IMG/VR virus record: IMGVR_UViG_3300036943_000185
Source: a virus
DNA: 31,371 nt
Reading direction: 5' to 3' (one strand)
The notes beneath the pieces were generated by a model. That model was not told the origin of the DNA, searched no databases, and saw only the letters and a list, made by a program, of their open reading frames with translations. The translations under genes and the position numbers were made by a program. Shown piece after piece: positions 1,495-17,393 of the stretch; the first letter of the stretch is position 1, and every line of letters begins with the position of its first letter.

Positions 1495-1946
1495 TGTACA
1501 TTATGTCACATCATACTATTACATATCTACATATACCTACATTAATGTACATGTATGTACAATGAACAATGACTATATGTCTACATTAGTGTACACATGT
1601 GTACATTAGTCTACATCTATGTACATGTATATTGTATCAAATATAACCAGTGGTAATATATGGTTATGTGTAATATTACTGACAGTAATAATTTGGTAAA
1701 TGTACACATATGTACATTGATGTAATGGTTATGTACATTTTTATTCTATTATGGTATTGTCATAATGTATCATTAAACAAATAACATAGTATCATTGAAT
1801 AGATAACATAAACCTACATAAGACTACATAAACCAACATCTACCTACATCATGATAACATTAACAGTTACATATTAAGACTACATCTATATTCTTATACT
1901 ATCTGTAATAAAAACCAATACCAACAAAAGACTACATAATTGTACA
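1495..1946. repeat. TGTACA / CTACAT-rich low-complexity non-coding repeat region
   Basis: TGTACA at 1495, 1546, 1556, 1590, 1600, 1620, 1701, 1711, 1732 and 1941; perfect 16-bp palindrome TGTACACATGTGTACA at 1590-1605; 17-bp direct repeat GTCTACATTAGTGTACA at 1255 and 1579. Confidence 0.75.
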
Positions 1947-2029
1947 ATAAGATAAAGGATAGATAAAACGACAACAACATAACCAATTACATTATTCCTA
2001 TATACATTAGTAACAACAAAAAACAGTCG

Positions 2030-2248
2030 ACTGCTATCGGTTTTAAATTAACCTAAAAGTATAATTTGTTATGGGTATCGGATTATGGTTACTGCTATCG
2101 ATTTTTAACCTATCGTTAACACATAGTCACTAATAGGTTAACGTATTTTATCCTAATTGTACTATCGTATTGTCTCAAATAGGATAAAAGTAAATTTTAA
2201 CATTTAAAACTAAAAGAACTTTAATTATCGTTACTGCTATCGTTTTTT
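2030..2248. repeat. Three ACTGCTATCG direct repeats, each followed by a T-tract
   Basis: Exact copies at 2030-2039, 2091-2100 and 2233-2242, upstream of the first plus-strand gene. Confidence 0.75.
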
Positions 2249-2353
2249 ACCAATAGTCTTTTATATATCGATGTGTTTATATGGTATACAATCGTATAGG
2301 GCAATGTTGATTTTTTAAAATCAGCATATCGTATAATGGAATAGGTGAATAAA

Positions 2354-3052
2354 ATGAATACAAAAGAATTGGTGGATAGTATAGGCATGTCTAAGACAGA
2401 TATCAGTAAAGCAATTGCAGACTCCAAAAACATGAAATCCTACCGTAGTGTCCTTAATTGGAGTAATGATAGGATATTCAATGAGTACAACCAATATGTT
2501 ATTGGTACTCAGCAACAGCAACAACAACAACCAGTAATGGAACAACAACAGCAACAACAACCAGTACAACATAACAAACCATTACAGGAAGGTGACATAA
2601 AAGAAGTGAATGGACAGCAATTCCTTTACACTAATGGTACATTAGTACCAATTGCCAGCAATCAGCCAGTACGCAACACTCAACAACAACAAACCGAACA
2701 ACAGCCAGTACCTAAATACCACCTTATCAATGGCTACTCCAGACATACTCCAGTGGGTGAGGCAATAGAGGAATTGAATGATAATTACGAATTAGTTGCT
2801 TATGGCATGCCTAAGCCAGACGGTGAACCGTCATCTTTCATAGTTGTTATGGAGAAAGACACTGGCTTTTATAGAACCGTATTCCTGAATGTCAGCATAG
2901 CGAGTGGAAGGGTAGTGGCTGGAGTAGGCAAAACACGTTTTACACGTGATGAACTACTCCAAAAACTATCTGGTTCTACTCGAAAAGGTGAACCATACCT
3001 AAAAGCAGATTATAGAAAGTATCTAAATTCCGCATTGCCTAAGAGTAGGTAA
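2354..3052 (+). CDS. Hypothetical protein with poly-Gln/QQPV low-complexity linker
   Basis: ATG 2354 follows GGTGA; contains Q7 and Q6 tracts and four (Q/N)QPV units; followed by an oligo-T tract. Confidence 0.8.
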   Translation: MNTKELVDSIGMSKTDISKAIADSKNMKSYRSVLNWSNDRIFNEYNQYVIGTQQQQQQQPVMEQQQQQQPVQHNKPLQEGDIKEVNGQQFLYTNGTLVPIASNQPVRNTQQQQTEQQPVPKYHLINGYSRHTPVGEAIEELNDNYELVAYGMPKPDGEPSSFIVVMEKDTGFYRTVFLNVSIASGRVVAGVGKTRFTRDELLQKLSGSTRKGEPYLKADYRKYLNSALPKSR

Positions 3053-3060
3053 TGCTACTA

Positions 3061-3068
3061 TTTTTTTT
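3061..3068 (+). terminator. Archaeal-type oligo-T terminator
   Basis: T8 run just after the stop at 3052; similar T-rich tracts follow 3299, 14042 and 22952. Confidence 0.5.
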
Positions 3069-3107
3069 ATCCAGATTAACTTATTTTAATATTTTAAGAG
3101 GTATAAA

Positions 3108-3299
3108 ATGAACACAAAAATCCAGATAAACGACAATTGCATAAGTACTTTTGATATGTGCTTAATCGGTGGTATAATCCATTATGTAGTTAGCATATAC
3201 GAATCGGATAATAACCAATATGTAAAAACTCGATATGGTATTAGTACACCAATACTGAGACATGCATTAGTTAAAATGCTTGATGCGGAATTTTATTAA
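3108..3299 (+). CDS. Hypothetical protein
   Basis: 63-aa ORF, GAGGT RBS, followed by T-tract. Confidence 0.65.
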   Translation: MNTKIQINDNCISTFDMCLIGGIIHYVVSIYESDNNQYVKTRYGISTPILRHALVKMLDAEFY

Positions 3300-3750
3300 C
3301 TATTTTTTTAATCACTCATACTTATTTTTATTTTTTAATAAGTATAATCTCATATATCCATTATATTAAGACTTTTTAATTTTTGAATGGTATAATACCT
3401 ATAATTAAAAAAATCCTCTTAGAATGGATATATGACACTATTAAGACTATATCCTTATTGTATTTCATCCTTCAATATGAGATATAGCATTTTATCATTT
3501 ATTGTTAGTATCAAATCGAATAAAATATTAACAATAAATGGATCTTAAATAATTGTTTGTATCCGAACTAACAATTACTGGATACATACACTTGAATGTA
3601 TACATTTGAATATATGTCCATAGATGACAAAAAAATAAAATTTGATATGAGGATGACCACAGGGTGCATGCAGAAATTTCTGCGGCAAAAATCATTTTTT
3701 AAGATTGTCATTATATCAATTTTACTTTAATTAATCATGGAGTGAATGAA

Positions 3751-4002
3751 ATGGAAAGCATACATAAAACACAAGTTATCTTGCATAGAGTTGTAAACAA
3801 TTATTTTAATATTAGGTGTGAATGTTTAGATTATGAACAGGAAATGCCTGAGAATGCTGTTGAAATAGCATTTAATCAAGCAAGAACATGGTTACACAAT
3901 CGTGTTCAAAAAAGTGAGCGTAATAATAAAGTATATAACGGTGAATTCAAATTTCACCAGAATACCCTATGGGGTATGATGATGTTTAATGAGGTGATTT
4001 AA
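3751..4002 (+). CDS. Hypothetical protein
   Basis: ORF-track frame; ATG 3751 follows GGAGTGA; first gene of a tightly packed run. Confidence 0.65.
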   Translation: MESIHKTQVILHRVVNNYFNIRCECLDYEQEMPENAVEIAFNQARTWLHNRVQKSERNNKVYNGEFKFHQNTLWGMMMFNEVI

Positions 4003-4251
4003 ATGGAATCAGAATATGTTGAAGGTAAAAGAGTAATTGCAATAAATCAAAGCAATTATCCTACAATAGTTGAAGTATACGGTGTTGATTATGACATTAC
4101 CGATTCAGTAGTTTTTGGTAGTAATGCTGACAAAGGTGAAGTAATGTCATCTACTATCAAAGCCGATGAACATAATCCATTTAGAGTGTATTTTGAATAC
4201 AATGGTGATAAATATTATCTTGATGAATGCATGACTATTGGATGTGATTGA
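4003..4251 (+). CDS. Hypothetical protein
   Basis: 82 aa, GAGGTGA RBS, abuts the upstream stop. Confidence 0.7.
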   Translation: MESEYVEGKRVIAINQSNYPTIVEVYGVDYDITDSVVFGSNADKGEVMSSTIKADEHNPFRVYFEYNGDKYYLDECMTIGCD

Positions 4252-4253
4252 GT

Positions 4254-4421
4254 ATGCCAATGTATAAACTGAAAACATTGAATGAACATGGTGAGTATGG
4301 TCATACATACATCATCGTTGCTTCAGATAGATTTGAAGCATGTAAAGAAGTTAGAAACAGAATAGGTAGTAATGATGTGATTAAGTCATGTATTATTGTC
4401 AATAACTGGGAAGGTGAATGA
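4254..4421 (+). CDS. Small hypothetical protein (55 aa, not in track)
   Basis: MPMYKLKTLNEHGEYG...NNWEGE; fills the gap and overlaps the next start as ATGA. Confidence 0.6.
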   Translation: MPMYKLKTLNEHGEYGHTYIIVASDRFEACKEVRNRIGSNDVIKSCIIVNNWEGE

Positions 4422-4684
4422 ACATGAATGAAACAGCAGAAGAAATATGGAAACGACATGTTAAAGGTGTCAATATCATGACACCAGATGCATTGGACTA
4501 CATAAGAACAGATGATGATTTGTTGATAGAACTTGCAGAGGGTACAGACTTCAGTGGCAATGCTATATATGGTGTATCAGTACGTAGATACAATGAAGAT
4601 GATGATAGCATTGAACATACTGGAAATTCAGATATGTTCAGAAGATATGATAAAGCAGTTGAATACATCGATGAATTGATGTGA
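4418..4684 (+). CDS. Acidic hypothetical protein
   Basis: 88 aa, GGTGA RBS. Confidence 0.7.
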   Translation: MNMNETAEEIWKRHVKGVNIMTPDALDYIRTDDDLLIELAEGTDFSGNAIYGVSVRRYNEDDDSIEHTGNSDMFRRYDKAVEYIDELM

Positions 4685-4689
4685 TTAAC

Positions 4690-4845
4690 ATGGGAAGAAG
4701 CACGTTATTTAAGTACAATGTACATGAAGAAAACGTTAATAGGAAACGTTATGAAATGCTTAAACAAGCGGATGAACAACAGTGTTCGAGACTGTCTGAA
4801 CAACGACAGTCCTTAATGGAACTTCAACATAACTTCTAGAAGTGA
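4690..4845 (+). CDS. Small hypothetical protein ending TAG-AAG-TGA
   Basis: MGRSTLFKY...LQHNF then TAG (4837-4839), AAG, TGA; a backup stop lies two codons after the TAG. Confidence 0.5.
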
Positions 4846-4850
4846 TAGCA

Positions 4851-5000
4851 ATGTCTAAGTATTGTCCAGCATGTATTGAGTGTACCGATTGTGATACACT
4901 TTTATGTGCTATATCAATGCGTAAATGTGAACACACTACTGGAACATGTAAGATTTGGCATGATAGTAAATTGAAATATCGTAAGCAGAATAGTGGGTGA
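4851..5000 (+). CDS. Small Cys-rich protein (49 aa)
   Basis: MSKYCPACIECTDCDTLLCAISMRKCEHTTGTC... Confidence 0.55.
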   Translation: MSKYCPACIECTDCDTLLCAISMRKCEHTTGTCKIWHDSKLKYRKQNSG

Positions 5001-5006
5001 TTAATT

Positions 5007-5174
5007 ATGAGATTAATAAGCAATGAAATGAGTTGGGTTGAACTATTGGTGTTTTTTATAATATCCGTAGTAATCTACATTTTATTCTATGGTATCATAA
5101 TATCTGGAATAATAATATTTGTAGGTTGGGTACTTGGTATTGATGTTATTGAGTTGGTGATGCAATGGCGTTAA
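5007..5174 (+). CDS. Small membrane protein (55 aa)
   Basis: Long hydrophobic stretch LLVFFIISVVIYILFYGIIISGIIIFVGWVLGI; GGTGA RBS. Confidence 0.6.
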   Translation: MRLISNEMSWVELLVFFIISVVIYILFYGIIISGIIIFVGWVLGIDVIELVMQWR

Positions 5175-5431
5175 CACATAATGATAGCATATCGTTTGCT
5201 ATAAAAGGTAACATTGGTTACGTGTACAGTGATAGAAGTAAGTATGGTAGCGATACACCTATTGCTACATATCCAAATTGTCGTAACATTGATGATGTAG
5301 CAAACAGATTTTATGAATACGACAAACGTACATTATGTATGGGACAGGAAGATATGCAGAAAGTTCGGCATAATAATTACAATGTGACTACATTGATTGA
5401 TGAATTGAATAAGAAGTACAACATGAGATGA
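5165..5431 (+). CDS. Hypothetical protein
   Basis: 88 aa, GGTGA RBS, part of the operon-like run. Confidence 0.7.
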   Translation: MALTHNDSISFAIKGNIGYVYSDRSKYGSDTPIATYPNCRNIDDVANRFYEYDKRTLCMGQEDMQKVRHNNYNVTTLIDELNKKYNMR

Positions 5432-5435
5432 TAAT

Positions 5436-5738
5436 ATGATGATTGAAATTTCAGAGCAAGACATTAAAGAAATCATACGTAACAACATGAAAGATGACAT
5501 TGAATTAATCATAGAAGAAGAAATGTATGAGGATGCTATCAGGAATGCAGTTAGGAAAGCGTTGATTGAACACATCAAATCAGATGAAGGACAAGAACAG
5601 ATTAAGAAATCATTCAAAGAATATTACATAGATGACGGTATTTGGACAGAATGTGATGATGTATATGAAGCAGTTAATGAAAGAATGGCAAAAATTGTTG
5701 AGAATATGTTTGACCAAGTGAAACTTGTACAGAAATAA
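5436..5738 (+). CDS. Helical hypothetical protein
   Basis: 100-aa ORF in the operon-like run. Confidence 0.7.
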   Translation: MMIEISEQDIKEIIRNNMKDDIELIIEEEMYEDAIRNAVRKALIEHIKSDEGQEQIKKSFKEYYIDDGIWTECDDVYEAVNERMAKIVENMFDQVKLVQK

Positions 5739-5750
5739 AGGTGATTAAAC

Positions 5751-6068
5751 ATGGATGAAGATGGATTCAGAGATTACATAACAGACAGAATGTCATTGAT
5801 ATTACGTAATAATTATGAAGTACAACAAGGGATAATCAATTCATTTAGGGAAGGTGATATAACATCACCTGATGACTTGCAATGTTACATTGAAACAACA
5901 TATTTTATAAACGAAATCAAACGTGATTATGGACAATATGTATACATCATTGATAAAGATGTGTACAGTCAGATTGACATGGACTATGTTGATTTTGCAG
6001 TTATATACGATGAATTCATGGAATATATAAAAGAGTTTGATGAGCAAGAAATTTCATTGTACGCCTAA
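5751..6068 (+). CDS. Acidic hypothetical protein
   Basis: 105 aa, AGGTGA RBS. Confidence 0.7.
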   Translation: MDEDGFRDYITDRMSLILRNNYEVQQGIINSFREGDITSPDDLQCYIETTYFINEIKRDYGQYVYIIDKDVYSQIDMDYVDFAVIYDEFMEYIKEFDEQEISLYA

Positions 6069-6221
6069 TGGAGGTGGAACAGGCAGAATTCAGAGGGGAA
6101 CAGAACTATGCGAAACAAAGGAACAGTGTGTAAAAAAAATCAAAGAAAAAGAAAAGGAAACTAATAATGAACAAACAAGGAATTGATGGATAGACTTTCT
6201 AAAACATGAGGATTTGATAAA

Positions 6222-6527
6222 ATGAACGATGATGATAGAAACAAACTGATAACTAAAAGTCAGTATTAGCATAGGATGAATAGACGTGCAGCAGATGAAG
6301 TGGGTGATTATGAAAGGTTTATGTACATTCGTGATACTGGATTGATGACTACACAGCATGACATAAATGAACAAGCAAGCGAAAATCCAAGTATAGTACG
6401 ATTACATTTAAATCCAGGGTTATGGTTTCCAATATGGGAAAACGGTGAGTACATCGGACAAGTAGCAATGAGTGAATACGAAATGTTTGGTAAAGGACAA
6501 TTGAGATTGGATGATTACCAGAATTAA
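6222..6527 (+). CDS. Hypothetical protein with probable in-frame TAG at codon 16
   Basis: ATG 6222 (GAGGA upstream) reads MNDDDRNKLITKSQY-TAG(6267)-HR and continues in frame into the track ORF 6276-6527, whose ATG lacks a properly spaced RBS. Confidence 0.55.
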
Positions 6528-6628
6528 TCATCATCTCTTTTATTTTTGTGAAAGGTATGTATGCATTGATTTTAGCACAGTTAATGCCAATGTATGCTAC
6601 CCATAAGAACTAAAGGAGAAATGAACAA

Positions 6629-6886
6629 ATGGCAACAGAAATTAGAGTAGGTATGGGTAACGAGAGAGAATTTGTAAACATGGATGAACTCAAAGAAGAA
6701 CTTGACAGAGTTGATGTAACATATGGCGATGTCATCTATGCAGCATTTGATGTAACTGCTGATTCAGTCAATACAAATCATGGTGTAAAGAATACATCTG
6801 ATATTGTATCTGATGAAACAGTAGCGGTGATGGTATCAGCACCTAAATCTGGTGGTGGTATGTCCACAAATGTTCACATGGTATAA
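6629..6886 (+). CDS. Ubiquitin-like (beta-grasp) protein precursor with G75-G76-G77 and a C-terminal extension
   Basis: 85 aa; beta-beta-alpha-beta pattern; ends ...SDETVAVMVSAPKSGG-GMSTNVHMV; strong AAAGGAG RBS; lies directly upstream of the E2, JAB and E1 genes. Confidence 0.7.
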   Translation: MATEIRVGMGNEREFVNMDELKEELDRVDVTYGDVIYAAFDVTADSVNTNHGVKNTSDIVSDETVAVMVSAPKSGGGMSTNVHMV

Positions 6887-6889
6887 ATA

Positions 6890-6924
6890 AAATGTGGGTA
6901 TAATTACCCACATTTAATATTTTT
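6890..6924 (+). terminator. Perfect 11-bp hairpin plus T-tract between the Ubl and E2 genes
   Basis: AAATGTGGGTA-TAAT-TACCCACATTT followed by AATATTTTT. Confidence 0.6.
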
Positions 6925-6940
6925 AAATGGAGATGATTAA

Positions 6941-7846
6941 ATGAAATTGGTAATTGATACGTTATGCACATATCATTTTGAAGATGATGATGGCAATGTC
7001 ATCGACAAAAAACAAATGCAAATGAACATACCCGAAAAGGATTTCAAACGTGAAGGACATGGTTCACTTGAAATTGAAATTAAAGTAGATTTCTATGAAT
7101 TATGTGATGAATTACAAATGCTTGATTTCGTGAATAGTGTTGATTATAATTTAGAGGATAAATGTTTTGAAATATATTGTACTGGAATTGAAGATGTACA
7201 TGAAGAACATGATGCATATGATTCAGATTGTAATATCAATATTGTTCCATATAAGGTATGCTTATTTGATGGTGGGCAATTATTAGTATTACCAACTGAT
7301 GGATTAAATTGTGGGTTTCATAGTGTACATCCAAACATAAGTAGTGATGGTGATATATGTTGGGGTGGTTCGTTTGGTATCATTGATGATTACGTAGAAA
7401 GCGGTGATATAATTATGTTTATGTTATCGTTACGTGATTTCATGAGCAAATGGTCAGCAGAAAATCCATTTTATAATCCAGTAAGTGTAAATCCATGTAG
7501 TCACTGTACACATGATGGATGCTTTGAGTTGTTATGTTGGTGCAGAGATTGTGCTGATTTCGATAGTTTCACATGTGTTGAGTGTAATCGTAGAGCAACT
7601 GTTGATATACCTTGGGCTAAATCAGAGATACATGATGTAGAAGAACGCTATGAAGGGCAATTGGATGATATACTTAATGACTTCAATTGCACAGATGGAG
7701 TAATTTGCCATGATACATACAACAAAACCATCGTGTTTGATGCAACGATTATGAACATAGTTGATTGGTTAGTAAACATAAATAAAAATGAAGTTGAATT
7801 ACATGAAGATGTACGTAATTTGATGGAAACACTTGAATTAATATAA
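6941..7846 (+). CDS. E2/UBC-like conjugating enzyme with C-terminal 8-Cys domain
   Basis: HPNISSDGDICWG matches the UBC HPN(I/V)xxxGxIC motif (Cys140); Cys at 186, 189, 194, 199, 201, 204, 212 and 215. Confidence 0.8.
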   Translation: MKLVIDTLCTYHFEDDDGNVIDKKQMQMNIPEKDFKREGHGSLEIEIKVDFYELCDELQMLDFVNSVDYNLEDKCFEIYCTGIEDVHEEHDAYDSDCNINIVPYKVCLFDGGQLLVLPTDGLNCGFHSVHPNISSDGDICWGGSFGIIDDYVESGDIIMFMLSLRDFMSKWSAENPFYNPVSVNPCSHCTHDGCFELLCWCRDCADFDSFTCVECNRRATVDIPWAKSEIHDVEERYEGQLDDILNDFNCTDGVICHDTYNKTIVFDATIMNIVDWLVNINKNEVELHEDVRNLMETLELI

Positions 7847-8629
7847 ATGGAGATGAATAAAATGGAAGTAGGAATATATATACCAAGAGATGTATGGACA
7901 GATATATGGACAATGATTAGTGTATGTAAACTTGAAGTAGGTGCACTAATGAGTTGTAGCATTGATAAAGATAATGGTATGATTACCGTAGATGAAATAT
8001 TTATACCATCACAGGAAGTAACTGGTGGTACATGTGATTTCGATAAGAACCAAGATGAAGGACTGTATGGTACAGATGATATATTAACGGAAGCGTTGAT
8101 GAGAGATGTTCATGTACCAATAAATGGTTGGGTACATAGCCATGTTAATATGAATACAAACTTTAGTTCAATCGATGATGACAACATTGAGAAATGGTTG
8201 GATTACAATAATGATTATTACGTTAGTATATGCGTAAATAAAAAGAAAGAAATTACTGGTAGAGTTGATATGCTGGTAGACACACCATTCACGTCTGAAC
8301 CTGAACATGTAACGATAGATGATGTAAATATCATGGTTGAAGAATGGTACAGTCCAAAAGTTATGGATTGGTTAAATACAGAAGGTGTGATACGTGAGAA
8401 GAAGTTTACTTACAAAAAGAAAGGTAAAAGTAAAGTTACAACTGTAACGTATAACAACGTTGAGTTGACATCAAGTAACAAACGTGAAGTACTTGAATGG
8501 GATGGTGTACAAGCACAATCAATGACAGATAAACAAATTGATGCATATTGGGATAAGCATAATTATAGTGAAGAAGATTACGATGAATATATTGAAAGTT
8601 TCGTTGAAATGTATTCACAGTTCAGGTGA
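7847..8629 (+). CDS. JAB/JAMM (MPN+) metalloprotease
   Basis: N-terminal Glu (KLEVGAL) and an exact HxHx7Sx2D motif, HSHVNMNTNFSSID (H97, H99, S107, D110). Confidence 0.9.
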   Translation: MEMNKMEVGIYIPRDVWTDIWTMISVCKLEVGALMSCSIDKDNGMITVDEIFIPSQEVTGGTCDFDKNQDEGLYGTDDILTEALMRDVHVPINGWVHSHVNMNTNFSSIDDDNIEKWLDYNNDYYVSICVNKKKEITGRVDMLVDTPFTSEPEHVTIDDVNIMVEEWYSPKVMDWLNTEGVIREKKFTYKKKGKSKVTTVTYNNVELTSSNKREVLEWDGVQAQSMTDKQIDAYWDKHNYSEEDYDEYIESFVEMYSQFR

Positions 8630-9210
8630 TTACAATGGATGATGTAATGGAACAATTCTTTCAATACCAGATAAGAGATGCTAAGAGTTATGCTAAAGCA
8701 TCTGCATTCACACATTCCGGTAGCAAATATACACCATGTGAACTGTTCAGTCCATGTATACACACCGATTGTTTAAATGGACTACAAACATATGGTTTTG
8801 ACATTGATACAAGATTGAAAGTGATATTTATTGGGTATAAAAATAATCTATCAACAGAGAATGGGTACATGGATATTGATTCTGATTACTTTAACCAATA
8901 TCCATTTAAATCAATTAATAGAAATTCGTTTAAAATGGGTGATATTATTGGTAATCCATTGATAAAATTCACATACAATAACTGTATTGATTTTATGGTT
9001 AAGACTGGTTCATCTATATTTGAATTCGATGTGTATCACTCATTTGATGTGAGTAAAGTATTCAATAGTATTTACAACAACAGAACAAAGGTAACACTTG
9101 ATGTAATGAAAGAATTATGTTACAGAATGACAGATTTTGTAGTGTTGAGTAACATACTTGAGGATAAGATTACAGGTGCATATAACATACTTGATAACAT
9201 GGAGGATTAA
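8626..9210 (+). CDS. Hypothetical protein within the Ubl cassette
   Basis: 194 aa; overlaps the JAB stop (GTGA); alternative ATG at 8635. Confidence 0.7.
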   Translation: MITMDDVMEQFFQYQIRDAKSYAKASAFTHSGSKYTPCELFSPCIHTDCLNGLQTYGFDIDTRLKVIFIGYKNNLSTENGYMDIDSDYFNQYPFKSINRNSFKMGDIIGNPLIKFTYNNCIDFMVKTGSSIFEFDVYHSFDVSKVFNSIYNNRTKVTLDVMKELCYRMTDFVVLSNILEDKITGAYNILDNMED

Positions 9211-9524
9211 TGATGGTAGTTGAAATAAACAGTGTTGATATAGATATGTCGTATTCAAATAATGATATGGCTGAGTTTCAGAATAACTACTTAGGCAAAC
9301 GATGTATAGGTAAGATAGGTGGTAACCCATTCAGAACAGGTGAATTCAATAAACTTGTTGAAATAGAACCAACAGAGATGACATCTGATGGTAAGTTTGT
9401 TAAAGCACGAATAAATGATTGTTTGCCAACATGGTTGAATTATTATGGTACAAATAAGGGTGGATTACACACTATCTTTGGAGACCATGTTGGTCTGTTT
9501 CATATAATTGAAGAAATAAAATGA
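9210..9524 (+). CDS. Hypothetical protein within the Ubl cassette
   Basis: 104 aa; TAATG overlap with the upstream gene. Confidence 0.7.
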   Translation: MMVVEINSVDIDMSYSNNDMAEFQNNYLGKRCIGKIGGNPFRTGEFNKLVEIEPTEMTSDGKFVKARINDCLPTWLNYYGTNKGGLHTIFGDHVGLFHIIEEIK

Positions 9525-9533
9525 AGTGATAAC

Positions 9534-10211
9534 ATGACAAACATAGAATATACACGACAAATGGAATGGTTTAATCCAGATAAGTATAGTGATACGAATG
9601 TTGCAGTAGTTGGTTGTGGTGGCATAGGTTCATTTTTGGTACTATACCTTGCACAAATGGGTATTAAGAATATCACGGTATATGATGATGATAAAGTTGA
9701 AGCACATAACCTACCTAACCAGAACTTTGATTTGAGACATATTGGTATGTTTAAGGTATGTGCTATGCAAGAAATTGTGAGAGAACGTACTGGTATCAAA
9801 ATCAATGCAGTTAATAAACGTGTAGGTAAGGATACAAAGTTTGATTGTGATGTATTGATGTTAGGTACAGATACCATTAGCAGTAGGGAGATGTGTCTAC
9901 GTAATGCTAAAAGTAGTGATGTGAAATGTATTATCGATGGTAGATTAGGTGGTCAATACTACCAAGTGTTTACGGTTGATATGCATAATTCTGATGAAGT
10001 ATACAAGTATCAACAATACTTCTTCCCACAATCTGAACAGGAACAACCAAGATGTACAGCAAAAGCAATTATATATATTGCATTGGATATTACATCTGAT
10101 ATGATTAGACATATGAGAGCATGGTTAATGGATTATGAATATCCTATTGTATATGAAGTTAACAGAGAACATAATGAGATAACAGCAGATGGAAACGTAT
10201 TTGTGTATTGA
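9534..10211 (+). CDS. E1/ThiF-MoeB family ubiquitin-like activating adenylyltransferase
   Basis: VAVVGCGGIGS, YDDDKVEAHNLPNQ, FKV, LGTD and IDGRLGG motifs; candidate thioester Cys174 (QPRCTAK); no CxxC Zn pairs. Confidence 0.92.
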   Translation: MTNIEYTRQMEWFNPDKYSDTNVAVVGCGGIGSFLVLYLAQMGIKNITVYDDDKVEAHNLPNQNFDLRHIGMFKVCAMQEIVRERTGIKINAVNKRVGKDTKFDCDVLMLGTDTISSREMCLRNAKSSDVKCIIDGRLGGQYYQVFTVDMHNSDEVYKYQQYFFPQSEQEQPRCTAKAIIYIALDITSDMIRHMRAWLMDYEYPIVYEVNREHNEITADGNVFVY

Positions 10212-12911: not shown

Positions 12912-12994
12912 ATGGGTGTAGCAAAGTGGTCAAATGCGTATGGCTTAAGACCATATCTGGTAGCAGTTCATGGGTTCGACTCCCATCACCCATA
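12912..12994 (+). tRNA. trnL: tRNA-Leu(UAA), no encoded CCA, no intron
   Basis: Acceptor ATGGGTG/CACCCAT + discriminator A; D arm GCA..TGG..TGC; anticodon arm TATGG-CTTAAGA-CCATA; variable arm CTG-GTAG-CAG; T arm ATGGG-TTCGACT-CCCAT. Confidence 0.93.
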
Positions 12995-14077: not shown

Positions 14078-15571
14078 ATGACACGTGATTTTTGTGAAGA
14101 CATCATTGAGTATGGTAGGCATAATATCATAGGAAATGAGCAACAATTCCTTGCATTTGTATTATCAATGCTAACGTGTTTTGCACCTTCACCCAAAGAA
14201 TATGTATCTACATTTTTAGTAGGTGAAAGTAGTGGTGGTAAAACACATTTGCAACGTACTGGTTTATATTTGCTACCCAATGAATGTATATTTAATATCA
14301 CAAGTAGTTCAGATAAAGCACCAATATACTCAGAAGACTTACGTAACGATGACAAAATCAAGTTTATACAGTTTGCAGAATATCAGAAACTACCACCAGC
14401 AGTTATTGAGTTTCTAAAATCACTGTCTGGTGATGATGATGATTTTGTATATGAAGTAACTAATGCTTCAAAAGGTAACACTATGAGGATTGAACATAAG
14501 AAAAGACCTTATAGTGCTACGTATGCACAGGTTGAGATTGACCATGAACTTGAAAGTCGTGTATTTGTTATACCAATAATGGATAACTATACAATCAATC
14601 GTTGTGTAGCAGCAATCAAATTTGGTGCAGATGAAGTAGAGTATTTGGGTGTTAAATATAAGTTAGTACCAGATGAAGAACTTGAAGCACGTATTATGGA
14701 TAACATACATTCACTAATGCAATCTGAAATGGAAGTAACCATACCATTTGCAACGGCATTAGTTGATATTGTTAACCATAGCAAGTCAGTGAGTAAACGA
14801 CATAGCAGTTTAATATCATCGTTGATTAAGAGTTCATGTCGTGCTAACTGGATTAATCGTAAATCAGTCGATGGTAAACTCGTAGCAAATGCACAGGATG
14901 TAACAAACGTATTGATTATGTTTGATTTGTTACGTGCTACAATGATGTCGATAGATATTATTGACTTGACTATATTTAAAAAGTTAAGTAAAGAACCTAA
15001 CCAGAACGCTGAAAGTTTAATTAGATTCTTACAGAACATGGGTTTAGCAGAACTTACAAAAACTGAACTCAGTCGTAGGTTAGACAAACTGTACAACGAA
15101 AACTACATTAAATGTAAAGGTGGTGAATCAGGTAATCTATACAGTGGTAACGATAAGAAACAGATACTAAAGGTACGTGTAGATTGGGATGAGATTTACA
15201 AACATGACAGTAGTCCAGTTAGAAACGTAATTACTGGTAAAGAATACAGTAACATCATTGAGTTTGGTAAGGATGCTGAAGTAGAATATGAGATACGTGA
15301 GTGTACAGAGGATGTGTCTGAACATAAACAGGTCAATATTAAAGAAGCGACTATACGTGAACTTGTGATTGATTGTATAAGTAATTCTGATAACGGTGGT
15401 TTAAATACCAGTGAGATTGCTTATAGTATCTTAAACAATCCAGATAATCAGGATAAACTTGATGGTATAGATTATTACGGTATATCATTTGATATTATAC
15501 CAGCGATGGTAGATGATGGTATAATTTATTATGATGACCAGAACAAAGTATATAAATTATTTGCAAAATGA
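14078..15571 (+). CDS. AAA+ ATPase, MCM-like replicative helicase candidate with C-terminal wHTH-like segments
   Basis: Walker A GESSGGKT, variant Walker B FIQFAE, Arg-finger-like HELESR; adjacent to primase. Confidence 0.65.
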   Translation: MTRDFCEDIIEYGRHNIIGNEQQFLAFVLSMLTCFAPSPKEYVSTFLVGESSGGKTHLQRTGLYLLPNECIFNITSSSDKAPIYSEDLRNDDKIKFIQFAEYQKLPPAVIEFLKSLSGDDDDFVYEVTNASKGNTMRIEHKKRPYSATYAQVEIDHELESRVFVIPIMDNYTINRCVAAIKFGADEVEYLGVKYKLVPDEELEARIMDNIHSLMQSEMEVTIPFATALVDIVNHSKSVSKRHSSLISSLIKSSCRANWINRKSVDGKLVANAQDVTNVLIMFDLLRATMMSIDIIDLTIFKKLSKEPNQNAESLIRFLQNMGLAELTKTELSRRLDKLYNENYIKCKGGESGNLYSGNDKKQILKVRVDWDEIYKHDSSPVRNVITGKEYSNIIEFGKDAEVEYEIRECTEDVSEHKQVNIKEATIRELVIDCISNSDNGGLNTSEIAYSILNNPDNQDKLDGIDYYGISFDIIPAMVDDGIIYYDDQNKVYKLFAK

Positions 15572-15943: not shown

Positions 15944-16390
15944 ATGGGATACGGTGAGTCTGATGTAGTTGATGCGTTGAATAATTATTTTGATAGTAAT
16001 TGTATCAATGCATTATCATATCGACATAAACAGGGTAGGTTTACTGACCAATGGTGTGACATTAATGTTGATAGTAGTGATAACCGATGGTATCTTGCAT
16101 TAGAGATAAAAAGCAAACGTGGTAAACGTGCTTTGAATTTCAACAACGATTTCACTACCAACAAAGATGGTGTACACCAGTTACAGAGATTAATTGATTA
16201 TTCTATGTTAACAGGTAGAAATCCAATGATAATAGTCTTTTGTAGAATGGGTAGAGGTAGACCAAACCAGATTTATACATTCGATGCATTGGACTTATGG
16301 ACACTCTGGAATAGCGGTAGTAAATCACTTAAGGCTAAAGAATACGATGAATATAACATAAGTTATTTTGATGAGGTGGAGTTCAAGTGA
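15944..16390 (+). CDS. PD-(D/E)XK nuclease, Holliday junction resolvase (Hjc/RecU-like), paralog 1
   Basis: GESDV...CDINVD...LALEIKSK...HQLQRL. Confidence 0.75.
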   Translation: MGYGESDVVDALNNYFDSNCINALSYRHKQGRFTDQWCDINVDSSDNRWYLALEIKSKRGKRALNFNNDFTTNKDGVHQLQRLIDYSMLTGRNPMIIVFCRMGRGRPNQIYTFDALDLWTLWNSGSKSLKAKEYDEYNISYFDEVEFK

Positions 16391-16394
16391 TAGT

Positions 16395-17393
16395 ATGGCA
16401 TTGATGTTTGAGTTATCTGATGATTGTATTAAGTTATCAGATAACAAACTAAACATGTTATACAAACATTTTGTTAATCGTTATGATGACTATGCTATAC
16501 AACAGGACAACGGTTCGTATCGTAGGTCAGACAGACCGTTGGATACTTACACACTACTTCAACACTTATCAGGTGAAATCACGATAGGTTCATACCAAAT
16601 AAGTTTAGACGGTAAGGTTAAGTGGATATGTCTTGATATAGACCATCATAACGATGAACAAAATGAGACAGATGTAGAGTTAGATACGTTAACAATCATT
16701 ACAAAACTTGAAGCGTTAGGTATAGATTACATATGTGAATCGTCTGGTTCAAGTGTGTCTAAACATATCTGGATATTCATGGATAACGTTAACGTATCAG
16801 ATGCATACAGTTTCGGTAGGGAAATAATAGGTGATACAGAGTGTGAAGTGTATCCTAAACAGAAGAAGTTAAGTGATGTTAAACCATACGGTAATTTAGT
16901 TAAGTTACCATTTGGTAAGAATAAGAAGAACGATAACTGGTCACATATCGTAACAAGTTCAGGTGATTGTATACATAAACTTAAGTTAGACAGATACATA
17001 CCGAGTGTGTACAAACGTAAGTGTAAGAGTGTCACAAAGCACTCTTCGAACTGTCTGAACATAGGTTGTTCTAATGGTGTACTACCGCTTACAATGAGAC
17101 CATGTTTAAAGAAAGTTTAGACTGGTGATATTAGTGCAGTCGGTACAGGTGGACATAACTTAAGATGTGCATTAGTACCTGAACTACGTGATTGTTGTGG
17201 TATGACTGAATCAGACATATTAAGTGTGTTTATGAATCAAATGGATTTTGATATTGAAGCAACCAGACGCAATGTTAAATCATTGATTCATTATAATAGG
17301 TATAGTTGTAGTAGAATTTTAGCAGAGTCTAAAAATATAGTAGAAGATATTTGTAAAGGATGTGTATTGAATGAAGACAAGAATCGATATTGA
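16395..17393 (+). CDS. Fused AEP primase (PriS-like) + PriL Fe-S domain, with in-frame TAG at 17118-17120
   Basis: AEP motifs CLDIDH, SSGSSVSKHIW, EVYPKQ and GNLVKLP. After RPCLKKV-TAG the frame stays open for 90 codons (TGDISAVGTGGHNLR...DFDIEATR...YSCSRI...ICKGC) and joins track ORF 17202-17393. Confidence 0.8.

Follow-up and report, generated by a model that had tools for sequence, protein, structure and literature searches.

Can a virus of prokaryotes carry an entire ubiquitin-like conjugation pathway of its own? The question is raised by a 31,371-nucleotide (nt) viral sequence, IMG/VR record IMGVR_UViG_3300036943_000185 (the whole of this stretch is called the window below), in which six open reading frames (ORFs) occupy positions 6629-10211. 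Four of them are predicted to encode, in order, a ubiquitin-like protein (Ubl), a ubiquitin-conjugating-type enzyme (E2), a JAMM/MPN+ metalloprotease (JAB) and a ubiquitin-activating-type enzyme (E1), and together they probably constitute a self-contained, virus-encoded conjugation cascade. There is fold or profile evidence for each component. The original prediction made from this DNA, in which an archaeal virus encodes a full Ubl cascade that depends on an E2, is in large part supported. The elements of the locus are the following.

6629..6886, + strand: precursor of the Ubl (pro-Ubl), 85 amino acids (aa), with a beta-grasp model; ends in ..APKSGGG plus an 8-residue tail
6890..6915, + strand: hairpin of 11 bp with a T-run, from its folding energy and a terminator-like call
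6941..7846, + strand: E2, 301 aa, with a UBC core at aa ~46-178, an eight-cysteine module and a helical tail
7847..8629, + strand: JAMM/MPN+ metalloprotease (JAB), 260 aa, with an invariant zinc motif and an Rpn11-like profile
8626..9210, + strand: ORF x1, 194 aa, with an alternative ATG start at 8635; no family
9210..9524, + strand: ORF x2, 104 aa; no family
9534..10211, + strand: minimal E1 of the ThiF type, 225 aa, with a Pfam ThiF match and an invariant Cys174

The ORFs lie exactly as first delimited. They had been described as co-oriented and tightly packed, and all six are indeed on the + strand, with successive spacings of 54, 0, -4, -1 and 9 nt. Every motif originally quoted for the Ubl, E2, protease and E1 was recovered in its place by script, which also verified the residue numbering of all motifs given below. 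The two ORFs between protease and E1 are not conserved with the cassette. Neither x1 nor x2 has a tblastn counterpart in any related locus or belongs to a Pfam, PHROG, PADLOC or NCBIfam family, and the ESM Atlas offers no lead for x1 and only chance-level scores (<=0.84) for x2. Lacking counterparts in related loci, both are therefore treated as passengers.

The E2 is recognized by its active site and its predicted fold. H130-P131-N132 is followed by a catalytic-type cysteine, C140, eight residues after the asparagine, and H130, P131, C140 and G142 are invariant in all 16 members of the E2 family, which includes 11 remote relatives retrieved by a full HMMER scan of 1.84 billion representatives and three proteins from related viral loci. 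A word-indexed search of 5.8 billion proteins returned a single relative, 93% identical. The protein has no match in Pfam, PHROGs, PADLOC or NCBIfam, its single sequence yields nothing relevant by phmmer against the PDB, and tblastn against 50,697 phage records is likewise negative. Used as a profile against the PDB, the family retrieves eukaryotic E2s throughout the best 60 matches listed (best E-value 0.0024, range 0.002-0.05), and in the alignments to solved E2s the HPN motif, the catalytic cysteine and a subsequent N-x-x-S-P stretch coincide. The AlphaFold2 (AF2) model points the same way, with a predicted local distance difference test score (pLDDT) of ~80 over residues ~50-175. When this model was compared with 48,161 chains by VIA, almost all of the ~30 highest-ranking matches were UBC, UEV or RWD folds, led by UBE2E1 (Z 7.6), UbcH5c (7.2) and Ube2W (7.0), with UEV and RWD domains and bacterial Cap2 lower; matches of Z 7.6-6.0 align 105-115 residues at 3.2-4.5 A over model residues 46-178. 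Foldseek searches of the PDB with the E2 and Ubl models gave weak E-values, VIA-align being the more informative. The family is sequence-divergent and retains the canonical HPN-Cys site.

Downstream of the UBC core is a zinc module of eight cysteines (aa 186-215, nt 7496-7585), seven of which are kept in 13-14 of the 16 family members. Its identity as a RING domain was considered and not adopted, since the spacing of the ligands is not that of a canonical RING and the module is modeled without confidence (pLDDT below 50). In one of the related loci, L006, there are two paralogous HPN-type E2 genes, one ahead of the JAB gene (1840-3216) and the other past the E1 gene (4821-6173).

The protease displays the complete JAMM zinc motif, consisting of E30 and H97-x-H99-x7-S107-xx-D110, and all five residues are invariant in each of nine JABs compared. 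The single protein scores below the cut-off of the Pfam Prok-JAB family (18.4 bits against 25; E 0.0021) and matches the JAB model of PADLOC at 1.2e-4. A profile of the nine JABs finds Rpn11 first in the PDB (4e-11), followed by the Rpn11-like protein of Caldiarchaeum (1.4e-10) and then by AMSH and CSN5; Pyrococcus JAMM1 matches this profile at only 0.28. From its sequence the enzyme is predicted to be the Ubl maturase, and it possibly acts as a deconjugase also. Both Caldiarchaeum Rpn11 (CsRpn11), a pro-ubiquitin processing enzyme (PMC6043591), and BilC, which pre-processes BilA (10.1101/2023.09.26.559546), provide precedents for maturation.

The original prediction would have failed had the 85-aa protein not been a beta-grasp protein. 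Its AF2 model (pLDDT 84.7) has that fold, and the nearest structures in the VIA search are BubA (Z 6.0), YukD (5.9) and the Bil Ubl 8tyz_B (5.7), followed by ubiquitin, SUMO, ISG15 and SAMP1. Sequence comparison is uninformative at this level: the Ubl matches nothing in Pfam, PHROGs, PADLOC or NCBIfam, and the Ubl profile has no meaningful match in the PDB, ubiquitin included. The family does share an AP-x-x-x-G-G ending, which is common to 11 homologous Ubl units. In the window protein the glycines G75-G76-G77 are followed by eight further residues, such that exposure of the C-terminal glycine would require cleavage. Comparable precursors occur in related loci, with one or two residues beyond the glycines in L002, L006 and L008 (two in L006 and L008); the tag of L003 terminates in exactly GG and that of L012 in a single G. 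Two of the tag genes are composite, that of L010 (7456-7917) comprising two head-to-tail Ubl units, each with an APKIDGG end, and that of L011 (1639-2391) comprising three units with APKIEAG ends separated by 17-aa linkers. The arrangement is akin to that of polyubiquitin. Maturation of tailed and poly-Ubl precursors calls for an endoprotease, a role that the neighboring JAB fits.

The E1 is the component most readily placed in a known family, with a Pfam ThiF match of 95.1 bits (E 4.6e-27; cut-off 28.1). It contains GCGGIGS at residues 27-33, NLPNQ at 59-63 and a candidate catalytic cysteine, C174; among eight E1s compared, R8, Q9, G27, G29, G32, D51, K74, D113, C174 and T175 are invariant. 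A profile built from eight relatives matches the adenylation domains of Uba6, MccB, Uba5, Uba1, ThiF, MoeB, BubCD and Cap2 in the PDB. The protein falls below all NCBIfam equivalog cut-offs (ThiF, MoeB and UbaA), reaching 37.9 bits for SAMPActivE1UbaA, where the cut-off is 450.

Directly 3' of the Ubl stop codon is the hairpin at 6890-6915, with a folding energy of -15.5 kcal/mol (z -3.8) that none of 200 shuffled sequences equals; with its T-run it is scored as terminator-like by a scan. A strong hairpin of different sequence resides at the same position in all six relatives that were folded (L012, L006, L008, L010, L003 and L002). It is likely an attenuator or a 3' stabilizer that sets the ratio of Ubl to enzymes and would raise the level of the tag.

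The order Ubl, E2, JAB, E1 is kept in three IMG/VR contigs (L002, L003 and L004), in contigs that encode remote E2 relatives (L006, L007, L008/L009, L010 and L011) and in L012, with zero to four unrelated small ORFs separating JAB from E1. In L002, an 85.6-kb contig, the cassette (2698-10046) is situated between SbcD/Mre11-like and SbcC/Rad50-like genes, which are normally adjacent. The family extends well beyond such contigs. Among 48 loci from bacterial metagenome-assembled genomes (MAGs), about a dozen contain an E2-JAB-E1 block whose E2 fits HP[HN][IV]..G..C.G, further loci having E2-E1 or JAB-E1 only, and E1 relatives are found in cultured Flavobacterium phages and crAss-like phages. Flavobacterium phages of the FpV4 type were considered as full counterparts and rejected, as they carry a JAB-ThiF pair and no recognizable HPN E2. 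A cassette of the same family (E2-JAB-E1) also occurs in a complete 4.5-Mb Bacteroidetes chromosome (L015; OY969888.1, 1368108-1384701), where its neighbors are a serine recombinase, an N6/N4 methylase, a TraG/TrwB-like ATPase, a DUF932 protein and a nucleoside diphosphate kinase, a context that suggests an integrated mobile element. The window cassette belongs to this broad E2-JAB-E1 family, whose carriers are viruses and mobile elements. It is not confined to archaeal viruses, as the same E2-JAB-E1 block is also seen in contigs that binning places with Bacteroidota, Ignavibacteriota, bacteria of the candidate phyla radiation (CPR) and others.

Several observations weigh against the reading of the locus as a working conjugation cascade. 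The first concerns the E2, which has no match to the Pfam UQ_con or Prok-E2 families even at E <= 1, and for which the fold support is moderate (Z <=7.6, Foldseek E >=0.04) and the whole-model pLDDT is 56. In the E1, position 62 is an asparagine, and across the viral clade Asn or Ser occupies the place where ThiF, MoeB and ubiquitin E1s carry the arginine of NLxRQ; the adenylation chemistry may therefore differ. Alignments to solved E1s, moreover, end before C174, so that the assignment of this candidate catalytic cysteine to the crossover loop is by spacing only. C174 is 61 residues past D113; the corresponding cysteines C184 of ThiF and C187 of MoeB follow the equivalent aspartate by ~57 residues. 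Finally, not all of the tags end as expected, those of L007 (1-183) and L011 (1639-2391) terminating in ..EG-NN or ..EAG-N rather than GG.

The analysis shows which genes are present, their folds and catalytic motifs, the conserved arrangement of the parts, the precursor and poly-Ubl forms in relatives, the viral setting and the absence of this E2 from the likely host order. The pathway proposed here goes further: its chemistry is conjectural throughout, as are its targets and the function of the zinc module. The 85-aa tag would first be synthesized in precursor form, probably outnumbering the enzymes owing to the hairpin and T-run. The Rpn11-like JAMM protease would then cut off the 8-residue tail to expose a C-terminal glycine, which the minimal ThiF-type E1 would adenylate before loading the tag onto its Cys174. 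Transfer to Cys140 of the UBC-fold E2 would follow. Target choice would probably fall to the zinc module and helical tail of the E2, which would serve as an internal E3-like element, and the tag would finally be attached to lysines of target proteins, a modification that the JAMM protease may also reverse. As to what such tagging might accomplish, no single role is favored strongly. Host takeover through tagging of host proteins in a methanogen without E2s ranks first, as a tentative proposal; tagging of the virus's own replication or assembly proteins is somewhat less probable, and Bil-like exclusion of competing viruses a little less so again, counter-defense or something else making up the remainder. 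The roles suggested in the original prediction, namely tagging of host defense proteins, redirection of the host proteasome or blocking of competing viruses, are likewise speculative.

Exclusion of competitors would also be the purpose of the locus under the least improbable alternative, in which it is viral cargo: an immune system of the Bil type that would tag the structural proteins of competing viruses and thereby bring about superinfection exclusion. The cassette and BilABCD each comprise four separate proteins, arranged as Ubl, E2, JAB and E1 (10.1101/2023.09.26.559546); in both, a JAB pre-processes, or is predicted to pre-process, a Ubl with a short C-terminal overhang, and some Ubls have two beta-grasp domains. 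Bil is known to tag a phage tail protein (10.1101/2023.09.04.556158), and related cassettes do reside in integrated elements such as that of L015. The resemblance to Bil drawn in the original prediction is sound as regards architecture only. In PADLOC-DB 2.0.0, a release whose Bil model content is unconfirmed, none of the four proteins matched a Bil-type model, the E1 being hit by CBASS E1-E2 models only and the JAB by the generic JAB model only. BilABCD (Types I and II) is, moreover, a cellular antiphage operon of defense islands, whereas the window cassette is virus-encoded and is located in a viral replication and nucleotide module, surrounded by genes for a class II ribonucleotide reductase (RNR), a thymidylate-synthase-like (ThyA-like) protein, a dUTPase, an HD protein, an archaeo-eukaryotic primase (AEP), an RNA ligase and a C5 methylase. 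It occupies the same place across related viruses, with the sbcD/sbcC flanks in L002, and a replication-module placement of this kind looks like that of a core early function rather than of a movable accessory gene. The two systems also differ in that the E2 described here combines a canonical HPN motif with a fused eight-cysteine module and in that its E1 is minimal. On balance, an origin as Bil cargo is doubtful, and a virus-run cascade remains the preferred reading.

Other systems provide further parallels. The operon of Caldiarchaeum subterraneum and Asgard archaea, which encodes ubiquitin, E1, E2, a small RING protein and Rpn11 (PMC3082918, PMC5654768, PMC6043591), shares with the viral cassette an archaeal setting, an HPN-type E2, an Rpn11-like JAMM protease that trims, or is predicted to trim, the tail of a tag precursor, and a Cys-rich zinc module alongside the E2. 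In contrast, the cassette is viral, its tag lacks sequence similarity to ubiquitin, its minimal E1 is no larger than ThiF, its E2 has the zinc module as a fusion with ligand spacing unlike that of a canonical RING, and a euryarchaeon devoid of E2s is its likely host. The window cassette appears to work like the Bil or Caldiarchaeum systems, but by the tests run it probably belongs to neither. Mobile bacterial operons of E1, E2 (UBC), JAB and (poly-)Ubl genes were described by Iyer, Burroughs and Aravind in 2006 (PMC1779556, Table 1 rows 6a-6e). These have the same domain set, Ubl domains in tandem (two or three per protein) described as "reminiscent of polyubiquitin", and carriage by mobile elements, but are found on bacterial chromosomes, plasmids and integrative and conjugative elements (ICEs), and the sole phage case is the tail-assembly Ubl-JAB of lambda/T1, with no E1 or E2 (PMC1779556); nor does any Pfam prokaryotic-E2 family match the E2 studied here. 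Sampylation by SAMP and UbaA resembles the cassette in its beta-grasp tag with a C-terminal di-glycine, its ThiF-type E1 and its JAMM protease, able to undo the tagging (PMC4443979) as the viral enzyme may be. It operates without an E2, however, while the cassette has one, together with an E1 far below the UbaA cut-off. Among archaeal viruses and related elements, E1-like genes have been reported in Nidhogg viruses (10.1101/2021.07.29.454249), in the RaFAH study (PMC8276007) and in Methanoperedens elements (PMC13444090); each is a lone ThiF-family E1 proposed to exploit the Ubl systems of the host, whereas the virus in question also supplies the tag, E2 and protease. The literature search retrieved no paper on a complete Ubl/E2/JAB/E1 cassette encoded by a bacterial or archaeal virus.

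The second question is which host this virus infects. In a scan with the E1 profile that took one genome per GTDB species, the best match (46% identity, full length) fell within a Methanosarcinaceae MAG, on a contig of 46.7 kb. This contig is syntenic with the window over the cassette, a 497-aa protein (51% identity), a nuclease, the primase, RNR, ThyA, the RNA ligase and others, and also carries genes for a large terminase (TerL) and a portal. The best matches of its TerL, among 2,138 matching phage records, are haloarchaeal tailed viruses. Similarly, the 497-aa protein of the window (14078-15571), when compared with the 50,697 phage records, matches haloarchaeal tailed viruses only (HGTV-1 and HATV-2). 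It has only a weak Pfam match, is 51-63% identical in L012 and L008, and in L008 shows a weak match to the Pfam family MTBMA_p00010_2nd, the name of which is presumably a Methanothermobacter plasmid locus tag. The primase gene of the window (16368-17393) is interrupted by an in-frame TAG at 17118, while its relative on a related contig (L062:14912-15949, - strand), which belongs to a PylS-encoding MAG, is a single 346-aa ORF with Ala at the TAG site; the 90 codons downstream of the TAG are conserved. TAG serves as the stop codon in only two of the 42 long + strand ORFs of the window, and the Methanosarcinaceae MAG encodes PylS. The closest companions of the window in the E1 tree are L006, the Methanosarcinaceae contig and L008; L007, L010 and a Bacteroides-binned contig join next, followed by a contig of a Thermoplasmata MAG, and the whole group stands apart from a Bacteroidota/Ignavibacteriota clade and a CPR clade.

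A bacterium in place of an archaeon as host is an unlikely alternative that draws on several of these observations. The cassette family is present in contigs binned with many bacterial phyla, E1 relatives occur in the Flavobacterium and crAss-like phages, and Shine-Dalgarno-like sequences are found upstream of window genes; recoding of in-frame TAG codons is known in phages as well. The Bacteroides-binned contig within the E1 clade of the window (L013; NZ_JAQVBV010000050.1, 24 kb) favors the same alternative. It has the RNA ligase in common with the window, although the clade around it is otherwise archaeal-looking, and it may be either mis-binned or a cross-domain relative. Against a bacterial host stand the synteny of the whole window with the viral contig of a PylS-bearing Methanosarcinaceae MAG, the affinity of that contig's TerL to haloarchaeal tailed viruses, the exclusively haloarchaeal matches of the 497-aa protein and the presence of a Thermoplasmata MAG contig in the same E1 clade. 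An archaeal host is thus indicated with fairly high probability, the most likely identity being that of a tailed archaeal virus whose host is Methanosarcinales-like. This assignment derives from MAG binning and from similarity to archaeal viruses, and the Bacteroides-binned member of the nearest E1 clade counts against it; the "archaeal virus" of the original prediction accordingly stands on synteny and on haloarchaeal-virus matches, support that is indirect. The likely host order itself lacks this E2 family, which in the Methanosarcinaceae MAG is confined to the viral contig and is absent from the other 283 of 284 genomes of that order, except for one marginal match to the zinc module.

It is highly improbable that the locus instead encodes a ThiS/MoaD-ThiF-type pathway for a sulfur carrier or a cofactor, in which a small thiocarboxylated protein would serve tRNA or nucleotide thiolation without conjugation. 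In favor of this reading, the E1 as a single sequence matches ThiF and MoeB best, and ThiF genes of archaeal viruses and extrachromosomal elements have been read as metabolic helpers (PMC8276007, PMC13444090). Against it, the E1 is strictly accompanied by an E2 with an invariant HPN motif and cysteine, neither a rhodanese domain nor a partner sulfurtransferase is present, the E1 scores far below the ThiF and MoeB equivalog cut-offs, and neither poly-Ubl precursors nor an Rpn11-like protease would be needed for such a role.

What is new in this locus is its probable archaeal-virus setting, its eukaryote-like E2 and its Rpn11-like protease. Prokaryotic Ubl-E1-E2-JAB cascades have so far been viewed as cellular antiphage immunity (Bil and the related type II CBASS), and archaeal viruses and mobile elements have been credited with lone E1-like genes only. 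A whole cascade supplied by a virus would reverse that view, making tagging a viral tool for takeover, self-regulation or rivalry between viruses. The eukaryotic-type best PDB matches of the E2 and JAB, in a family spread over viruses of both prokaryotic domains, also bear on the origin of ubiquitin signaling. At its most far-reaching, and as a speculation with little probability attached to it, archaeal tailed viruses would bring a full E2-dependent cascade into methanogens that otherwise have sampylation only, and an E2/E3 hybrid, made up of the E2 and its fused zinc module, would mark host proteins, possibly for the archaeal proteasome. Were this true, viruses would be both a reservoir and a vehicle of E2-type ubiquitin machinery across bacteria and archaea, which would have a bearing on the assembly of the eukaryotic system. 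The four viral proteins are small (85, 301, 260 and 225 aa), their reconstitution in vitro is feasible, and genetic tools exist for Methanosarcina. A profile made from this E2 family, which escapes Pfam, would uncover many more such systems in viromes.

Two minor features lie outside the cassette. A functional link to the neighboring RNA ligase was entertained and dropped, given that the ligase is near the cassette in only three or four loci. The window also contains a tRNA-Leu gene (anticodon TAA) at 12912-12994.

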